Positions 42,175-63,897 of a stretch of DNA of 64,000 nt are shown here, piece by piece. Under the pieces are notes generated by a model. That model saw only the letters and a list, made by a program, of their open reading frames with translations, was not told the DNA's origin and made no database searches. The position numbers and the translations under genes are program-made. Source of the DNA: an uncultured Spirochaetia bacterium (GTDB lineage: Bacteria > Spirochaetota > Spirochaetia > CAZBHR01); contig CAZBHR010000002.1 in NCBI GenBank assembly GCA_964492025.1, forward strand, positions 106,568-170,567. Direction: 5' to 3'. Positions within the stretch are counted from its first letter, which is position 1; each line of letters begins with the position of its first letter.

Positions 42175-42909
42175 TTACGCTCCTTTGATTGCAAGAAGGG
42201 AGATAAAACTCAGAGACTTCCACCATACATACACTGGAGTAAACCCTATGGTTGTAAGACGTGTCATATGGTCCTCTAGGGTATCTGGTATAAGTACATG
42301 TTCTAGGGCCTTTCTTTTTCGGCTAATCTCTGTTCGTGAGTACCCATTGAGTTCTTTGAAGTTGTGGTACGCTTCCTCTTGAAACTTCTGTTCCTTAGGG
42401 TCTTCAAAGATAATTTTTTCCGAGAGAATGAGAGCTCCCCCAGGGGTAAGGTTCTGATAAATACGTTGAAGGAGGGGTGTCCTTGACTGGGGGGCAAGAA
42501 ACTGTAAGGTAAAGTTCATTGCCACAAGAGAGGCATTCTCTATGGGAGTTTCTAAAATATCACCAAGAACTACAGATATTGGTATTTGCTGTCTCGCTCT
42601 GTCCACATTGGCTTGGCACCGTTGAACCATAGGTTCCGAATTGTCTATGGCAATAATACGGGTTCCTTCGGTAGTTGCACCCTGGGCCATAGATAAGGCT
42701 CCAGCTCCAAGAGAGGTGCCAAGGTCGTAGAGATTTGTGTGAGGTTGTCCGTACTGCTCGGCAAACACCTTTGTCATACCTATTACCTCACGGTATCCAG
42801 GGACGGATCGTTGAATCATATCTTCAAAGACCTCAACAACCTCTTTGTCAAAGCAGAATCCTCCGATACTTCGGGGATTTGTCATAAATATACTGTCTCT
42901 TTGAGCCAT
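42175..42909 (-). CDS. cmoA: Carboxy-S-adenosyl-L-methionine synthase
   Basis: 244 aa class I methyltransferase-fold protein directly upstream of, and translationally coupled to, cmoB. Confidence 0.85.
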   Translation of the reverse strand: MAQRDSIFMTNPRSIGGFCFDKEVVEVFEDMIQRSVPGYREVIGMTKVFAEQYGQPHTNLYDLGTSLGAGALSMAQGATTEGTRIIAIDNSEPMVQRCQANVDRARQQIPISVVLGDILETPIENASLVAMNFTLQFLAPQSRTPLLQRIYQNLTPGGALILSEKIIFEDPKEQKFQEEAYHNFKELNGYSRTEISRKRKALEHVLIPDTLEDHMTRLTTIGFTPVYVWWKSLSFISLLAIKGA

Positions 42910-43025
42910 AGCAACCTCTCTTCACGCAGAGTAATGAAATATATAAAACCTTTCAATATGGGGAGTTTCTCAAAAGTTCCCAATACCATATAGATTTTCC
43001 TTGGTAACTGTTGTAAGGTTGTTAT

Positions 43026-43946
43026 ATGGATAGTGTAGAGTTACGAGGTAATATTCTTAATATACTGAAAAAACAAGGACCCATTTCGGGAGAGTCTCTT
43101 GCCCAGCAACTAGGGTTTTCTCGTGTTGCTCTGTGGAAGCATGTCGAAGCCCTACGTACTATGGGATACAATATAGTAGGATGCAGGGGAGGATATACCG
43201 TATCCGATAGTCAGGACCTTCTTTACCCCTGGGAATTTCCGGGAATGGAACAATATATACATTACTATCCAGAGTGTGGTTCTACCATGGATGAAGCAGA
43301 GTTACTTGTGTCACAAGGGGCTCCAGAGGGTTCTTTGGTTCTTGCGGGTGTCCAAACAAAGGGACGGGGAAGGCTTGGGCGTGTGTGGGAGTCTCCTGTG
43401 GGCGGAATTTATGGAACCCTCATTGTAAGACCAGAGTATCTTCCTTTACAGGAGTTTTGGACAATGCAGTGGAGACTTATCGTTTCCATTGTTCGTGCAG
43501 TACGAGAAATTGGGGTGGATGCATCTATTAAATGGCCAAATGATCTGTTAGTGGGGTCAAAAAAATTGACAGGAGTGATAGCAGAGACTCGATCTTCCGG
43601 TGGGTTTGTTGAGTGGGGGTTACTCGGTTTTGGTATTAACTGCAATAATCAGGTTCCCGAGGTTGGTGTATCCTTAGGATCACTTCTTGGAACACCTATA
43701 GATAGAAAAGCTCTTATTCGTGGAATTCTTACACACTTTCAAGAGGTTAGGGTGCTCTCTATAGAAGAGCTTACCCAACAGTGGAGGAGTTATACCTCAA
43801 CCTTGGGCAGGAAGGTTACTATTGATATGGGTGGTGGAAATACCCTTGAGGGAGTTGCTAAAGAGGTGTTTAGTGATGGGAGTCTTGTTGTTGTAGACAC
43901 CCAAGGAGAGGAGCATCGCTGTTACTCCGGTGATTGTTTGTATTAA
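43026..43946 (+). CDS. birA: Bifunctional biotin-protein ligase / biotin operon repressor
   Basis: 306 aa. N-terminal helix-turn-helix (ISGESLAQQLGFSRVALWKHVEALR), central ligase domain (GRGRLGRVWESP..., KWPNDLL). Ends ...EEHRCYSGDCLY. Confidence 0.8.
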   Translation: MDSVELRGNILNILKKQGPISGESLAQQLGFSRVALWKHVEALRTMGYNIVGCRGGYTVSDSQDLLYPWEFPGMEQYIHYYPECGSTMDEAELLVSQGAPEGSLVLAGVQTKGRGRLGRVWESPVGGIYGTLIVRPEYLPLQEFWTMQWRLIVSIVRAVREIGVDASIKWPNDLLVGSKKLTGVIAETRSSGGFVEWGLLGFGINCNNQVPEVGVSLGSLLGTPIDRKALIRGILTHFQEVRVLSIEELTQQWRSYTSTLGRKVTIDMGGGNTLEGVAKEVFSDGSLVVVDTQGEEHRCYSGDCLY

Positions 43947-43947
43947 G
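43909..43947 (+). repeat. 39-bp direct repeat, copy 1 (covers the last 36 nt of birA plus the base after the stop)
   Basis: AGGAGCATCGCTGTTACTCCGGTGATTGTTTGTATTAAG is identical to 44687-44725. Confidence 0.85.
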
Positions 43948-44068
43948 GGCATAAGTTAAGAACTCTTTCGGCCGTAGCTATAGAAGTGATTTCTATGAAG
44001 ATCTCTTATCATATATTTGACAGGCTGGACTAAATATAGTATCTTTAAAAGACTAGGAGGGGCGCTTT

Positions 44069-44341
44069 ATGAGTATTACAAACCATATAAAACCTATCTC
44101 ATATATTAAATCGCACGCAGCAGAGGTTCTTCAAGATGTTCACGAGACTAAGGTTCCTTATGTTATCACACAACATGGAGAAGCTAAGGCTGTCCTTATG
44201 GATACCTCTTCGTATGACTCTTTAATGGAGTCAATAAAAGTGCTTAAGCTCCTCCAGCAAGGAGAGAAGGATGTGGTTGAGGAGTGTGTTGTTGCTCAAG
44301 ATACTGTTTTTTCTCAGGTAGAGAAGATTTTTGACATATGA
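44069..44341 (+). CDS. Type II antitoxin, Phd/YefM family
   Basis: 90 aa (MSITNHIKPISYIKSHAAEVLQDVHETKVPYVITQHGEAKAVLMDTSSYDSL...). 4-nt overlap with the downstream toxin gene. GGAGG ribosome-binding site. Confidence 0.6.
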   Translation: MSITNHIKPISYIKSHAAEVLQDVHETKVPYVITQHGEAKAVLMDTSSYDSLMESIKVLKLLQQGEKDVVEECVVAQDTVFSQVEKIFDI

Positions 44342-44664
44342 GTAATGGGTTTTCAGTTCTGTGGACAGGTACAGCTGTAGAGGATTTGAAGTCTCTGTGT
44401 GAGTATCTTGCACAAGACTCAATGAATGTTGCTAGAAAGCAGTATAAAAAAATACGAGATAGAGCTAAAACACTTGAAACATTCCCTTTTGAAGGTCGTG
44501 TTATTCCTGAGTTACAGGTTCACAATATTTATACTTACAGAGAGCTTGTAATTTCTCCATGGAGATTGTTCTATCGTATAAGTAAGCAAGAGGTGTATGT
44601 ACTTGCAATAATAGATAGTAGGCGAGATATCCAAGATCTCCTTTTGGATCGTATTTTACGGTAA
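44338..44664 (+). CDS. Type II toxin, ParE/RelE family
   Basis: 108 aa, C-terminal ...YRELVISPWRLFYRISKQEVYVLAIIDSRRD typical of ParE/RelE. ATGA overlap with the antitoxin gene. Confidence 0.6.
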   Translation: MSNGFSVLWTGTAVEDLKSLCEYLAQDSMNVARKQYKKIRDRAKTLETFPFEGRVIPELQVHNIYTYRELVISPWRLFYRISKQEVYVLAIIDSRRDIQDLLLDRILR

Positions 44665-44686
44665 CCCTGTACACCTATCAACTAAT

Positions 44687-44725
44687 AGGAGCATCGCTGT
44701 TACTCCGGTGATTGTTTGTATTAAG
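44687..44725 (+). repeat. 39-bp direct repeat, copy 2 (non-coding duplicate of the birA 3' end)
   Basis: Exact copy of 43909-43947, located 23 nt after the toxin stop and just upstream of the bioY operator and promoter. Confidence 0.85.
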
Positions 44726-44768
44726 ATTATCCTGCATCCACAATTTGAGGTAGACACTCTTTTAGTCT

Positions 44769-44801
44769 TTTGTTAACCTGTATTTATAAATAAGTTAACG
44801 A
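44769..44801 (+). promoter_or_regulatory. Candidate BirA operator overlapping the bioY promoter
   Basis: Half-sites TTGTTAACC (44769-44778) and AGTTAACGA (44793-44801) form an imperfect inverted repeat separated by about 14 nt of AT-rich sequence containing TATAAA. Lies about 30 nt upstream of bioY. Confidence 0.4.
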
Positions 44802-44830
44802 TAATAAAGATTCACTGCAAAGGAGTGTTG

Positions 44831-45385
44831 ATGAACAGAACAAAATCAATTATTTTAATAGCCCTAGGTGTTGCCCTTGTATGGGTTGGGTCGGTTGTCT
44901 CAATTCCTATTGGTCCTGTACCAATAACTCTACAAACTATGATGGTTGTAGTGGTGGGAATGATGTTAGGCCCTACTCGTGGAGGGTTGGCTATTCTTCT
45001 TTACTACCTTTTAGGAGTTATAGGAATTCCGGTTTTTGCTGGATTTAAATCGGGGGTTGCCGTATTTACCACCTCTCCCACAGCAGGGTTTTTATTAGGG
45101 TTTTTTCCCGCTGCTCTTATTTCGGGAATCCTCTTTTCTGTGGCTACATGGTTTAAAGGAGTTGTCCGATATGTTCTGATTGCCGTAGCTGCGGTTGTTG
45201 GAATGGTAGTTCCGTATACTTTGGGGATTCCTCTTTTTATGAGCTATACAGGAAAAACCCTCGCCGAATCGCTTCCCCTTGTATTAACTCCATTTATTGT
45301 AGGAGATGTGATTAAAACATTTGCTGCCACTCTTGTTGGGGGAGCACTTTTACGGTTTCGTAGTGTTGATGGAGAGAACTCCTAA
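44831..45385 (+). CDS. bioY: Biotin transporter S component
   Basis: About 184 aa, multi-TM, with conserved BioY block (PIGPVPITLQTMMVV). Start set to ATG 44831, 5 nt after AGGAG. Confidence 0.75.
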   Translation: MNRTKSIILIALGVALVWVGSVVSIPIGPVPITLQTMMVVVVGMMLGPTRGGLAILLYYLLGVIGIPVFAGFKSGVAVFTTSPTAGFLLGFFPAALISGILFSVATWFKGVVRYVLIAVAAVVGMVVPYTLGIPLFMSYTGKTLAESLPLVLTPFIVGDVIKTFAATLVGGALLRFRSVDGENS

Positions 45386-45430
45386 GGTGAGTTTATATCA
45401 TAATATGAGTGATATACAGAAGGCATACCT

Positions 45431-46186
45431 ATGATACCTCATACAAAACCCATTGTTTCAGTTGAAAATCTTTACTACTCAATTGGGAAAAATCCAATTT
45501 TACAGGGTGTAAATCTCAAGGTAGAACCTGCAGAGATTGTAGTTCTTGCTGGTCGTAATGGGTGTGGGAAAAGTATTTTATCTCGACATATACGAGGGCT
45601 TATTCCTCTAAAAAAAGATCAGGGAGATATTCGTATTGATGGAGTCTCTATGGTTGGTCATAAGGGGGTTTACCCCGATGTGGGGCTTGTATTTCAGGAC
45701 CCTGACTTACAAATTGTGGGTAGTAGTGTAGAGAAAGATATTGCCTTTGGTCCAGAAAACCTAAAAATGGATAGAGAAGAGGTTTCTCGACGAGTTAGGG
45801 CAATTGGGGATCAGTTGGAGCTTACAAAACTTTTTACCCGTCGTCCACATACTCTTTCTGGTGGTGAAAAGCGGCGAGTTGCCATGGCTGGTGTTATGAT
45901 TATGGAGCCTAAGCTTCTCATTTTAGATGAACCCTTTGTAGCCTTGGACTATCCAATGATTAGAGAGATCCTCTCAATTATTGTAGATTTACAAAAGCGG
46001 GGAGTGGCAACACTAATTATTACCCACGATTTAGAAGTGTGTTTAGCCCATGCTGATAGGCTTGCCCTTATGTCTGAAGGAGCGATACTCTCTCAAGCAC
46101 CTCCGCAAGAAAATATCCACAGAATTACCGAAGTAGGGCTTCATCCTCCCCGTTTAGCTGTGGGGGAGTGCACATGGCTGAATTAA
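45431..46186 (+). CDS. ECF transporter ATPase (BioM/EcfA-type)
   Basis: 251 aa with Walker A (GRNGCGKS), signature (LSGGEKRR) and Walker B (ILDEP). Confidence 0.75.
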   Translation: MIPHTKPIVSVENLYYSIGKNPILQGVNLKVEPAEIVVLAGRNGCGKSILSRHIRGLIPLKKDQGDIRIDGVSMVGHKGVYPDVGLVFQDPDLQIVGSSVEKDIAFGPENLKMDREEVSRRVRAIGDQLELTKLFTRRPHTLSGGEKRRVAMAGVMIMEPKLLILDEPFVALDYPMIREILSIIVDLQKRGVATLIITHDLEVCLAHADRLALMSEGAILSQAPPQENIHRITEVGLHPPRLAVGECTWLN

Positions 46187-46905
46187 GGATTCTTCATTAT
46201 CAACCAGGGGAGAGTTGGCTTCATCGACACCACCCTGGAGCAAAGTTTCTCGAGTTTCTGGGAATTAATATTGTATTAGTGTTACTACCTCTCTGGAGTT
46301 CAGCTCTTTTTTTGATACCCCTTGTGGTACTGTTTCCGTTTGTTGGATTTGATCGAAAAACCTTTACATCTCTTGGAATAGCCGTGGTCAGTATGATGGT
46401 ATTCTTTATTTGTATTGGAATGCTCTCTGTGGAGGGGGTTTGGTTCTCTCTTTCTGGATGGAACGTTGGGGTGTTGCAGGGGCTTCGGTTTATTACACTG
46501 ACCCTATGGGCGGTACTTTTTTTGGGAGTAACAGACCCTTGGGATATTGCGGGATGTATCGGTTCGCTCGGAAGAGGACGGGTAAAACTATTCTCCTATT
46601 TAGGTTTTGCTATAGCCTTAGTGTTAAGTTTCTTTCCTATGCTTTTAGATAGGGCTCTTGAACAAGGGGAGGCGTTAAGAAATAGAGGGTTAACCTTTCG
46701 TAATCCGATTAGATACTGTGCCTTTCTTGGGAGTAAACTGGTTATTTCTGTAGAACTTCTTGCGGATGATCTTTCCATGGCTATCGAGTCTCGTTGTTAT
46801 CGACCAGATAGAGCTTGGGGAATTCCTCGTTGGAAGGTTGTTGATATAGTTGGAGTCTTTACTGTTTGGATTGTTCTTGGAGTCTTATTTATTATTTTTC
46901 CATAA
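46174..46905 (+). CDS. ECF transporter transmembrane (T) component (BioN/EcfT-type)
   Basis: About 243 aa polytopic protein, overlaps the ATPase gene; start ATG 46174 or GTG 46168. Confidence 0.7.
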   Translation: MAELRILHYQPGESWLHRHHPGAKFLEFLGINIVLVLLPLWSSALFLIPLVVLFPFVGFDRKTFTSLGIAVVSMMVFFICIGMLSVEGVWFSLSGWNVGVLQGLRFITLTLWAVLFLGVTDPWDIAGCIGSLGRGRVKLFSYLGFAIALVLSFFPMLLDRALEQGEALRNRGLTFRNPIRYCAFLGSKLVISVELLADDLSMAIESRCYRPDRAWGIPRWKVVDIVGVFTVWIVLGVLFIIFP

Positions 46906-61577: not shown

Positions 61578-61731
61578 TATTGATTTTCCCTTAGAAACTC
61601 ACATTAGCTTTATAGGAATAATGCCTCCTTGCCACCTCTTCGTGTAAAAAAGTACAATAATGTGTTGATACACAGGATTTTTTCATTGACCCAGTTTTAT
61701 ATTGTATTATACTAAAGGCAAGGAGTGTCCC

Positions 61732-63897
61732 GTGTTATATATCATAATTATTGCTATAGTACTTGCATTAATGTTCTCCCTCTACAACTACAAGAGGGTA
61801 GAAAAGTTAGATGGTGGCTCAGAGACTATGCAGGAGATCTCTTCTGCTATACGAATTGGAGCCAGTACCTTTATTAAAAATGAGTATAAGTTAGTTGCGA
61901 TAATCAGTGCCATTATCACAGTTATTCTCATTCTCGTTACCAGTGTATCCACTGCAATAGCATTTTTGCTTGGTGCTACAATGAGTGGAACCGCAGGGTA
62001 TGTTGGCATGAAAATAGCTACCATTACTAACTCTCGTGTAGCCCAGGAGGCAAATACGAGTAGGAGTCTTGGTTCTACCCTTAAGGTTGCCTTTCGTGGA
62101 GGAAGTGTTATGGGGCTTTCGGTTGCCGCTTTTGCACTCCTTGGAATGCTTATTGTCTATGTGGTGTTTGGTAAGATGTTAGGTCAGCTTGATATTGATA
62201 ATATTAATTTTCATACAAACTTTTTAGGAATAGCGGATATACCCTTTACCATGACCGTTTCTGGTTACGCTTTAGGTTGTTCTGTTATTGCAATGTTTAA
62301 CAGAGTTGGCGGTGGTATTTATACAAAGGCCGCAGATATGGGAGCAGATTTAGTTGGTAAAACTGAAGCTGGTATTCCCGAAGATGACCCCCGAAACCCT
62401 GCAACTATTGCGGATAATGTGGGTGATAACGTTGGTGATGTTGCTGGTCTTGGATCAGACCTCCTAGAGAGTTTTGTAGGATCTATGGTATCTGCAATCA
62501 TCTTAGCCAGTTATATATTTTATCATAATACTCGTATGGGTGTAGCTATATCCTATGAGTTATTGCAGAGTTTAATCATTTTTCCTATTCTGTTTGCGAG
62601 TATTGGACTTATTGGGTCTATTGTGGGAATTGGATACCTACTCTTTAAAAAGGTGTCAGATAATCCCCATAAGGAGTTGAATAGATCTATTCAGGCCGCT
62701 GCTTTTTTAACATTAGTAAGCACTGGATTCCTTAGTTATTACACCTTTGCGGGGCAAGATGTGACACCCCTAGGATTTAAGCTTGGGCCATTATCTCCAT
62801 GGATAGCTTCTATTACTGGTATTATAAGTGGTATTGTGATTGGGCACCTTGCGGAACGATACACAAGCTACGACTTTAAGCCTACCAAGAAAATATCTGC
62901 CGCTTCCCAAGAGGGTACTGCCTTAACTATTACCCAAGGGTTGGCTACTGGAATGACCTCGGTATTCTTTCCTGTAGTGGTATTAGCACTGGCTACAATT
63001 GTATCATTCTCCGTATCTGGGTTGTATGGGGTAAGTATGGCAGCCCTTGGAATGTTATCATTTGTTGCGGCCACCGTTTCTGTTGATACCTATGGTCCAA
63101 TTGCGGATAACGCTGGTGGTATTGCAGAGATGTCTAAGTTAGATGGAGAGGTGCGGGAAATTACGGATAAATTAGACTCCGTTGGAAACACCACTGCAGC
63201 GGTTGGTAAGGGGTTTGCCATTGGAAGTGCGGCCTTTGCTGCGTTGTCACTCTTCTCTTCATACCTCTATGCTAAGGCAGGAGCATCTATTGATGAGTCC
63301 TTTGAGCTTGTACTAAATATGATCGATAGCTTTACCCTTGCTGGTGGACTTGTTGGTGCGGCTCTTCCATTTCTCTTTTCAGGGATTCTTATTGAGGCTG
63401 TTGCAAAGGCTGCAAGAAGCATGGTTGATGAAGTACGACGACAGTTTAAAGAGATGCCAGGAATATTAACAGGGGAGGAGAAACCAGACTATACTCGCTG
63501 TATTGAAATATCAACAAAGGGGTCTCTTCGGGAGATGGTACTTCCTGCACTGGTAGCTGTGTTAGTTCCTATTGTTTCAGGACTTCTCTTTGGACCACAG
63601 TTTGTAGGTGGGCTTTTGATTGGAACAACCCTATCTGCTATTATGTTAGCCCTTTTTACCGCCAACTCCGGTGGTGCTTGGGATAATGCGAAAAAGTATA
63701 TAGAACAAGGACACTTTGGGGGGAAAGGTTCAGATTCCCATATTGCGGGTGTTGTAGGAGATACCGTAGGAGACCCTCTTAAAGATACGGTTGGTCCATC
63801 ATTAGATATTCTTATTAAGATTATGGCAGTAATAGCTGTTATTACCGTTTCGATTTTTAGTGAATTTAACCTATTATCTCTATTGGGATTAAACTAG
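61732..63897 (+). CDS. hppA: Membrane-bound pyrophosphatase, K+-dependent type (H+ or Na+ pumping)
   Basis: Conserved motifs (GGGIYTKAADMGADLVGK, DNVGDNVGD, DTVGDPLKD). The GNTTAAVGKG motif carries Ala rather than Lys, the K+-dependent signature. Start set to GTG 61732, 7 nt after AAGGAG; the ORF-track start is TTG 61702. Confidence 0.85.
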   Translation: MLYIIIIAIVLALMFSLYNYKRVEKLDGGSETMQEISSAIRIGASTFIKNEYKLVAIISAIITVILILVTSVSTAIAFLLGATMSGTAGYVGMKIATITNSRVAQEANTSRSLGSTLKVAFRGGSVMGLSVAAFALLGMLIVYVVFGKMLGQLDIDNINFHTNFLGIADIPFTMTVSGYALGCSVIAMFNRVGGGIYTKAADMGADLVGKTEAGIPEDDPRNPATIADNVGDNVGDVAGLGSDLLESFVGSMVSAIILASYIFYHNTRMGVAISYELLQSLIIFPILFASIGLIGSIVGIGYLLFKKVSDNPHKELNRSIQAAAFLTLVSTGFLSYYTFAGQDVTPLGFKLGPLSPWIASITGIISGIVIGHLAERYTSYDFKPTKKISAASQEGTALTITQGLATGMTSVFFPVVVLALATIVSFSVSGLYGVSMAALGMLSFVAATVSVDTYGPIADNAGGIAEMSKLDGEVREITDKLDSVGNTTAAVGKGFAIGSAAFAALSLFSSYLYAKAGASIDESFELVLNMIDSFTLAGGLVGAALPFLFSGILIEAVAKAARSMVDEVRRQFKEMPGILTGEEKPDYTRCIEISTKGSLREMVLPALVAVLVPIVSGLLFGPQFVGGLLIGTTLSAIMLALFTANSGGAWDNAKKYIEQGHFGGKGSDSHIAGVVGDTVGDPLKDTVGPSLDILIKIMAVIAVITVSIFSEFNLLSLLGLN

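Follow-up and report, generated by a model that had tools for sequence, protein, structure and literature searches.

Is the inverted repeat that precedes the biotin transporter genes bioY-ecfA-ecfT in an uncultured spirochaete the operator at which the biotin protein ligase BirA shuts down biotin uptake? The question arose from a preliminary description of a 64-kb stretch of DNA (64,000 nucleotides, hereafter the window), in which a BirA-type dyad had been noticed at the bioY promoter. As judged from the sequence, the dyad TTGTTAACC-N14-AGTTAACGA very probably is an operator for biotinyl-5'-AMP-dependent BirA repression of bioY-ecfA-ecfT. The features on which this reading draws are given below in window coordinates.

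43026..43946, + strand: birA, predicted group II biotin protein ligase/repressor, 306 aa; winged helix-turn-helix (HTH) at residues ~9-57, GRGRLGR biotin loop, KWPND motif
44770..44778, + strand: left half-site of the putative operator, TTGTTAACC (direct reading, window scan)
44779..44792, + strand: spacer TGTATTTATAAATA, 14 nt, AT-rich; TATAAA at 44785-44790 (TATAAT in L004)
44793..44801, + strand: right half-site of the putative operator, AGTTAACGA (reverse complement TCGTTAACT, a half-site that recurs in the outgroup birA-bioY locus L096)
44819..44825, + strand: bioY ribosome-binding site AAAGGAG, 5 nt before the ATG at 44831 (direct reading)
44831..45385, + strand: bioY, biotin-specific S component of an ECF transporter, 184 aa (Pfam BioY, E=3.9e-33)
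45431..46186, + strand: ecfA/bioM, ECF-type ABC ATPase (Pfam ABC_tran; best NCBIfam match TIGR04520 ECF_ATPase_1, E=2e-60, under the equivalog cut-off)
46168..46905, + strand: ecfT/bioN, CbiQ-family transmembrane T component (Pfam CbiQ, E=5e-14; likely start ATG 46174)

The neighbouring genes encode a biotin transporter and a full-length BirA

The gene identities given in the preliminary description were upheld by Pfam matches to HTH_11 and BPL_LplA_LipB for BirA and to BioY, ABC_tran and CbiQ for the transporter. bioY, ecfA and ecfT are consecutive on the + strand, with a 45-nt gap between the first two and an overlap between the last two, and their order is identical in L001, L004, L005 and L098. 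A BioY that comes with its own A and T components is predicted to be a dedicated (group I) biotin ECF transporter, BioMNY. The open reading frame list starts bioY at GTG 44825, but this codon overlaps the AAAGGAG ribosome-binding site, and the homologue P0001 (99% identity, 184 aa) begins at the ATG equivalent to 44831. The ecfT orthologues are 243 aa long.

The candidate regulator is encoded 0.9 kb upstream of the dyad. That this BirA carries an N-terminal HTH, as had been proposed, was borne out by the Pfam match to HTH_11 (E=1.9e-12) and by full-length alignment to the BirA proteins of Staphylococcus aureus (residues 10-304 to 3rir) and Escherichia coli (residues 20-289 to 1bia), the N-terminal domain aligning with the E. 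coli winged HTH. The ligase part matched BPL_LplA_LipB (E=8e-20), and the whole protein scored 145 bits against NCBIfam TIGR00121, for which the cut-off is 83; against TIGR00122, the repressor domain, it scored 48.8 bits, under the cut-off of 70. Pfam BPL_C was not matched in BirA at E<=1e-3; the C terminus nonetheless aligns to solved ligases, the alignment reaching residue 303-304 of 306 against the Pyrococcus horikoshii and S. aureus enzymes, with GRGRLGR and KWPND visible against 1wnl.

The recognition helix, SRVALWKHVEALR, reads S32-R33-V-A-L-W-K-H (SRVALWKHV) and is invariant in close relatives. It is nearer to the SRTAVWKHI of the fetched Bacillales and Clostridia BirA proteins than to the SRAAINKHI of E. 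coli, with which it shares the conserved S32 and R33; in E. coli BirA, mutation at the positions aligned with these two residues leaves the protein unable to bind DNA (PMC5640590). Taken together, these features predict a group II ligase/repressor that is complete in length, carries a winged HTH and has a recognition helix like that of Firmicutes. A scan of GTDB species representatives found no close BirA relatives, the hits being at most 39% identical (haloarchaea, Bacillales and Clostridia).

The dyad consists of two GTTAAC-centred half-sites 14 nt apart

Direct reading placed the left half-site TTGTTAACC at 44770-44778, the spacer TGTATTTATAAATA at 44779-44792 and the right half-site AGTTAACGA at 44793-44801, all on the + strand, so that the whole inverted repeat measures 32 bp. 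The span of 44769-44801 assigned earlier is therefore exact at its end and begins one base too far to the left. The repeat had been called imperfect, with about 14 nt between its arms; indeed, the arms are 7/9 complementary and the spacer is exactly 14 nt. Its distance from the transporter genes, put at about 30 nt, is 29 nt from the dyad end to the bioY ATG at 44831 (23 nt to the alternative GTG at 44825), and the AT-rich stretch with a TATAAA between the half-sites was likewise found as described, at 44785-44790 within the spacer.

Each half-site holds a GTTAAC core, itself a palindrome, at 44772 and 44794. The core centres are 22 bp apart, approximately two helical turns, and 16 nt separate one core from the other. 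BirA operators have inverted half-sites of the TGT(T/A)AACC type around a spacer of about 14-16 nt, a pattern that the dyad follows. Compared with the consensus TTGTTAACC-N14-GGTTAACAA, the two half-sites TTGTTAACC and AGTTAACGA match at 16 of 18 positions with both cores intact; the two departures lie in the right half-site, which has A for the innermost G and G for the A beside the core.

The site is unique in the window

Sites were scored by the number of mismatches to TTGTTAACC-N14-GGTTAACAA over these 18 positions. In a scan of the 64-kb window, the dyad upstream of bioY had 2 mismatches, the next-best site at any spacer of 12-17 nt had 4, and the bioY dyad was the single site with 3 or fewer. 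Block shuffling of the window, repeated 200 times, gave no site with 2 or fewer mismatches, and none with 3 or fewer was found in the BirA-centred loci of unrelated organisms, which totalled approximately 0.88 Mb. The window held no second BirA site, the region upstream of birA included, and there is therefore no indication that birA is autoregulated from a site upstream of it.

GTTAAC is self-palindromic, so any two copies make an inverted repeat; the arms of this one are merely 7/9 complementary, and the surrounding DNA is AT-rich. The dyad might thus be a chance pair of such palindromes in an AT-rich promoter region, devoid of any regulatory role. Against this stand the frequencies. The base composition of the window predicts 0.0027 sites with 2 or fewer mismatches per 64 kb and 4.7e-6 (about 5e-6) per 110-nt intergenic region, and among the 10 copies of GTTAAC in the window the operator cores are the sole pair within 40 nt. 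Moreover, both cores and their spacing are kept in divergent orthologues with a changed spacer and changed flanks, as well as in outgroup bioY loci (see below). A chance pairing is accordingly very improbable. As a separate observation, this HpaI-type palindrome is scarce in the window, its 10 occurrences (2 of the 10 being the operator cores) comparing with approximately 20 expected from base composition.

The half-sites and their spacing are conserved upstream of bioY

Database searches yielded six close relatives of BioY, with 66-99% identity, below which identity falls to approximately 40%. The orthologous loci compared were L010, L001-3, L004, L005/6, L007/8 and L091-93, which amount to about four independent lineages. 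In every orthologous locus with upstream sequence the dyad was kept upstream of bioY, its two GTTAAC cores and 14-nt spacer length unaltered. The variants are as follows.

Window, L010 and L091-93 (BioY identity 99% for L010): TTGTTAACC-N14-AGTTAACGA
L001-3 (BioY identity 86%): TCGTTAACC-N14-AGTTAACGA
L004 (BioY identity 79%): TCGTTAACC-N14-AGTTAACGA
L005/6 (BioY identity 67%): TTGTTAACC-N14-GGTTAACAA, the perfect consensus
L007/8 (BioY identity 66%): TTGTTAACC-N14-GGTTAACCA, 1 mismatch

On the birA side, L001 and L010 have 95-98% nucleotide identity to the window, and L091-93 have an identical ParE and operator; because these loci are close relatives, independent conservation rests on L004, L005, L007 and the outgroups. 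The spacers and flanks of L005 and L007 could not be aligned to those of the window; the left half-site is at the centre of the best local alignment between the intergenic regions. N14 dyads were also present upstream of bioY in two of the three outgroup loci fetched, which contain the nearest homologues at 38-39% BioY identity. L096 has the order birA, then TTGACA..TCGTTAACT-N14-GGTTAACAA, then bioY, and L094 has TCGTAAACA-N14-GGTTTACAA upstream of bioY; L098 showed no N14 dyad upstream of its bioY. birA was syntenic with the dyad in every locus long enough to show it.

As a side observation, operator and bioY are separated in L007 by a GC-rich leader of approximately 120 nt (488-610), which contains an additional GAGTTAACC half-site close to the ribosome-binding site. 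No known RNA of Rfam was matched in the window, L005 or L007.

The site resembles validated BirA operators of Firmicutes

The half-site type and spacing had been judged BirA-like, and this held on comparison with the validated bioY operators of Streptococcus suis and Lactococcus lactis and with the Bacillus subtilis half-site. In S. suis, the bioY operator TTGTTAACC-N14-GGATAACAA extends over the transcription start, and gel shifts showed that BirA binds it (PMC4877710). The window shares with it a left half-site TTGTTAACC identical at 9/9 positions, the layout of a 9-mer, 14 nt and a 9-mer, a location in the bioY promoter (over the transcription start in S. suis) and a group II BirA, which is a repressor in S. 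suis. The right half-sites differ, being GGATAACAA in S. suis and AGTTAACGA in the window. Furthermore, S. suis is a firmicute with a site validated by gel shift, whereas the window comes from an uncultured spirochaete whose site is known from sequence, and bioY of the window is the first gene of a dedicated bioY-ecfA-ecfT operon beside birA. In S. suis, which lacks a biosynthesis operon, it is uptake that BirA controls (PMC4877710).

In L. lactis, the bioY1 operator CAGTTAACC-N14-GGGTTACTG overlaps the promoter from -35 to -10, and BirA1, the BirA that has the HTH, is the only one to bind it (PMC4861984). It has in common with the window the N14 spacing, a GTTAAC-type left half-site (CAGTTAACC) and the overlap with the bioY promoter region, and differs in that BirA and BioY each occur as two paralogues in L. 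lactis. Relative to the consensus TTGTTAACC-N14-GGTTAACAA, the S. suis operator has 1 mismatch, that of the window 2 and the more degenerate one of L. lactis 6.

B. subtilis BirA has operators at bioWAFDBI, yuiG (bioY) and yhfUTS; the bioO half-site TTGTTAACC is visible in primer SKH035, and binding needs biotin and ATP as well as both half-sites (PMC4016012). This half-site is the same as the left half-site of the window, BioY transporters are among the regulated genes, and the recognition helices of the fetched Bacillales BirA proteins are of the SRTAVWKHI type, close to SRVALWKHV of the window. B. subtilis, however, has a three-operator regulon that includes biosynthesis, as against the single site seen in the window. 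Binding of the B. subtilis protein to E. coli bioO is weak (PMC4016012).

The logic proposed here for the window would be that of the E. coli bioO/BirA paradigm, namely a bifunctional ligase/repressor with biotinyl-5'-AMP as co-repressor that acts as a dimer on an inverted repeat over the promoter. The E. coli system differs in its half-site TTGTAAACC, its longer spacer and its recognition helix SRAAINKHI, and it controls divergent biosynthesis promoters and no transporter.

Half-sites, synteny and loci that lack the upstream cassette argue against another regulator

A toxin-antitoxin cassette lies directly upstream of the dyad, between two copies of a direct repeat.

43909..43947, + strand: direct repeat copy 1, the last 12 codons and the stop of birA; 39-nt perfect repeat of 44687-44725
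44069..44341, + strand: phd/yefM-family antitoxin, a cassette gene outside the biotin switch (Pfam PhdYeFM_antitox, E=7e-17; TIGR01552)
44338..44664, + strand: parE/relE-family toxin, a cassette gene (Pfam ParE_toxin, E=2e-15; TIGR02385)
44687..44725, + strand: direct repeat copy 2, the duplicated birA 3' end downstream of the cassette; 39-nt perfect repeat of 43909-43947

Given this position, the dyad could be the operator of a regulator other than BirA, serving Phd-ParE autoregulation, a BioR-like GntR protein or another factor. The dyad is, however, located downstream of parE and not upstream of phd, and it is present unchanged in L010, L004 and L005, which lack the cassette; since the dyad exists without the cassette, the toxin-antitoxin reading was rejected. 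As for BioR, the alphaproteobacterial box is reportedly TTATMKATAA, and the spacer sequence TTATAAATAA matches it at 9/10 positions. Yet the spacer is not kept in L005, L007 and L096, whereas the half-sites are, and the adjacent genes include none of the GntR or TetR type; the idea of a BioR-like box was discarded because the spacer is unconserved outside the clade. Any non-BirA regulator would also have to contend with half-sites that match validated BirA half-sites exactly (left half-site TTGTTAACC) and with the synteny of birA and the dyad. We therefore consider such a regulator highly unlikely.

The dyad overlaps candidate promoter elements of bioY

The preliminary description had set the dyad over the bioY promoter with TATAAA as its -10 element. 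The overlap with candidate promoter elements stands, and TATAAA proved to be one of two options, both below the threshold of the consensus scan.

44751..44756, + strand: candidate -35 TAGACA (5/6), option A; 17 nt to TAACCT (44774-44779), which overlaps the left half-site
44762..44767, + strand: candidate -35 TTAGTC (2/6), option B; 17 nt to TATAAA (44785-44790), a geometry as in L096

The scan found no + strand promoter over threshold at the dyad in the window or in L004. The block GGTAGACACTCTTTT (44749-44763), which holds the -35 of option A, is invariant in the window, L010, L001 and L004 and aligns with TTGACA-N17-TAACCT of L007. Strong promoters were predicted in two other loci. In L005, TTAACA-17-TATAAT (11/12) has its -35 in the right half-site, and in L096 the -10 of TTGACA-17-TATTAT (11/12) lies inside the operator spacer. 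Under either option, BirA bound as a dimer to 44770-44801 would lie over the start site or over elements of the core promoter. Because neither promoter of the window reaches the scan threshold, the exact mode of repression is uncertain.

The repeat could also act as RNA, either as a terminator or attenuator hairpin for birA or parE transcripts or as a stabilizer of the bioY mRNA 5' end. It sits between the upstream gene and bioY, and its + strand folds at -8.5 kcal/mol (z = -2.2), the L005 version at -11.8 kcal/mol (z = -4.75). Any DNA dyad would fold likewise, though, and the stem is short and AU-rich around a 14-nt loop, with no U-tract on either strand; a terminator scan found nothing at the site. 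In addition, it is the GTTAAC sequence itself that is conserved, compensatory changes being absent, and the left arm would remain untranscribed if either candidate promoter were used. A role as RNA is thus extremely improbable, and the terminator or hairpin reading was dropped on the weak fold and the absent U-tract.

A model for biotin-responsive repression of biotin uptake

By analogy with the BirA proteins of E. coli, B. subtilis, S. suis and L. lactis, we infer BirA binding to the dyad, the co-repressor, the promoter used and the direction of regulation. When biotin exceeds its consumption by apo-carboxylase, BirA would hold biotinyl-5'-AMP and dimerize, and its two winged-HTH domains would bind the two GTTAAC-centred half-sites. 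The operator is predicted to span the core promoter of bioY-ecfA-ecfT; we propose that BirA covering this promoter therefore excludes RNA polymerase, so that synthesis of the ECF transporter would stop. Read-through from upstream would also be stopped by bound BirA. When biotin is scarce, the adenylate would be spent on acceptor proteins, BirA would be off the DNA and the transporter would be made.

BirA operators before bioY have long been established, and the spirochaete site is an ordinary example of a well-known switch. With this site, the pairing of BirA with bioY through a TGTTAACC-N14 operator of the Firmicutes type would extend to a lineage of uncultured spirochaetes; in the literature searched, no reports pairing BirA with bioY in spirochaetes were found. 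The site suggests that the organism adjusts its uptake of biotin to what is available, a point of use in metabolic reconstruction and, since the organism may be a biotin auxotroph, in cultivation. What is gained is a testable 32-bp site, and the understanding of BirA regulation is unchanged.

The phd-parE cassette parts birA from the putative operator

The cassette comprises 739 bp (43948-44686) inserted between birA and the operator and bioY. It was present in L001-3 and L091-93. In the cassette-less L010, which has 98-99% nucleotide identity in the flanks, and in L004, birA is followed directly by the operator and bioY, and there is one repeat copy. Presence of the cassette varies between near-identical strains. 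Directly upstream of phd, TTGACA-17-TATCTT (10/12; 44017-44045) is probably the cassette's own promoter, transcription from which could read through towards the operator and bioY. The cassette showed neither terminal inverted repeats nor a recombinase, and among the database matches the exact ParE protein was found only in the same genomic context. With ParE confined to one context and terminal inverted repeats absent, mobility of the cassette is therefore unproven.

A similar arrangement was observed in L005 (67% BioY identity), in which two copies of a 30-nt stretch of the birA 3' end (GTTACTCCGGGGATTGCCTCTACTAGATTT) enclose an insert of 48 nt that differs from the cassette (2215-2330); this duplication around another insert suggests that the birA 3' end is a recurrent hot-spot of insertion or recombination. 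We regard as unlikely the fuller proposal that the birA 3' end is such a recurrent hot-spot and the cassette a small, integrase-less mobile toxin-antitoxin unit that targets the gene end and parts the repressor gene from its operator.

When 42175-46905 of the window was compared with 3344-8077 of L001, nucleotide identity was 97.4% for cmoA, 95.2% for birA, 97.8% for phd and 97.6% for parE, and on the 3' side 83.6% for bioY, 90.3% for ecfA and 90.8% for ecfT. This drop from approximately 97% to 84-91% points to a recombination breakpoint in the operator-bearing parE-bioY intergenic region. The operator variant of L001, TCGTTAACC, is that of the more distant L004. Elsewhere in the window, the best named relatives of the pyrophosphatase encoded at 61702-63897 (68-73% identity) were Spirochaetales and Spirochaetaceae metagenome-assembled genomes, Sediminispirochaeta and Oceanispirochaeta.
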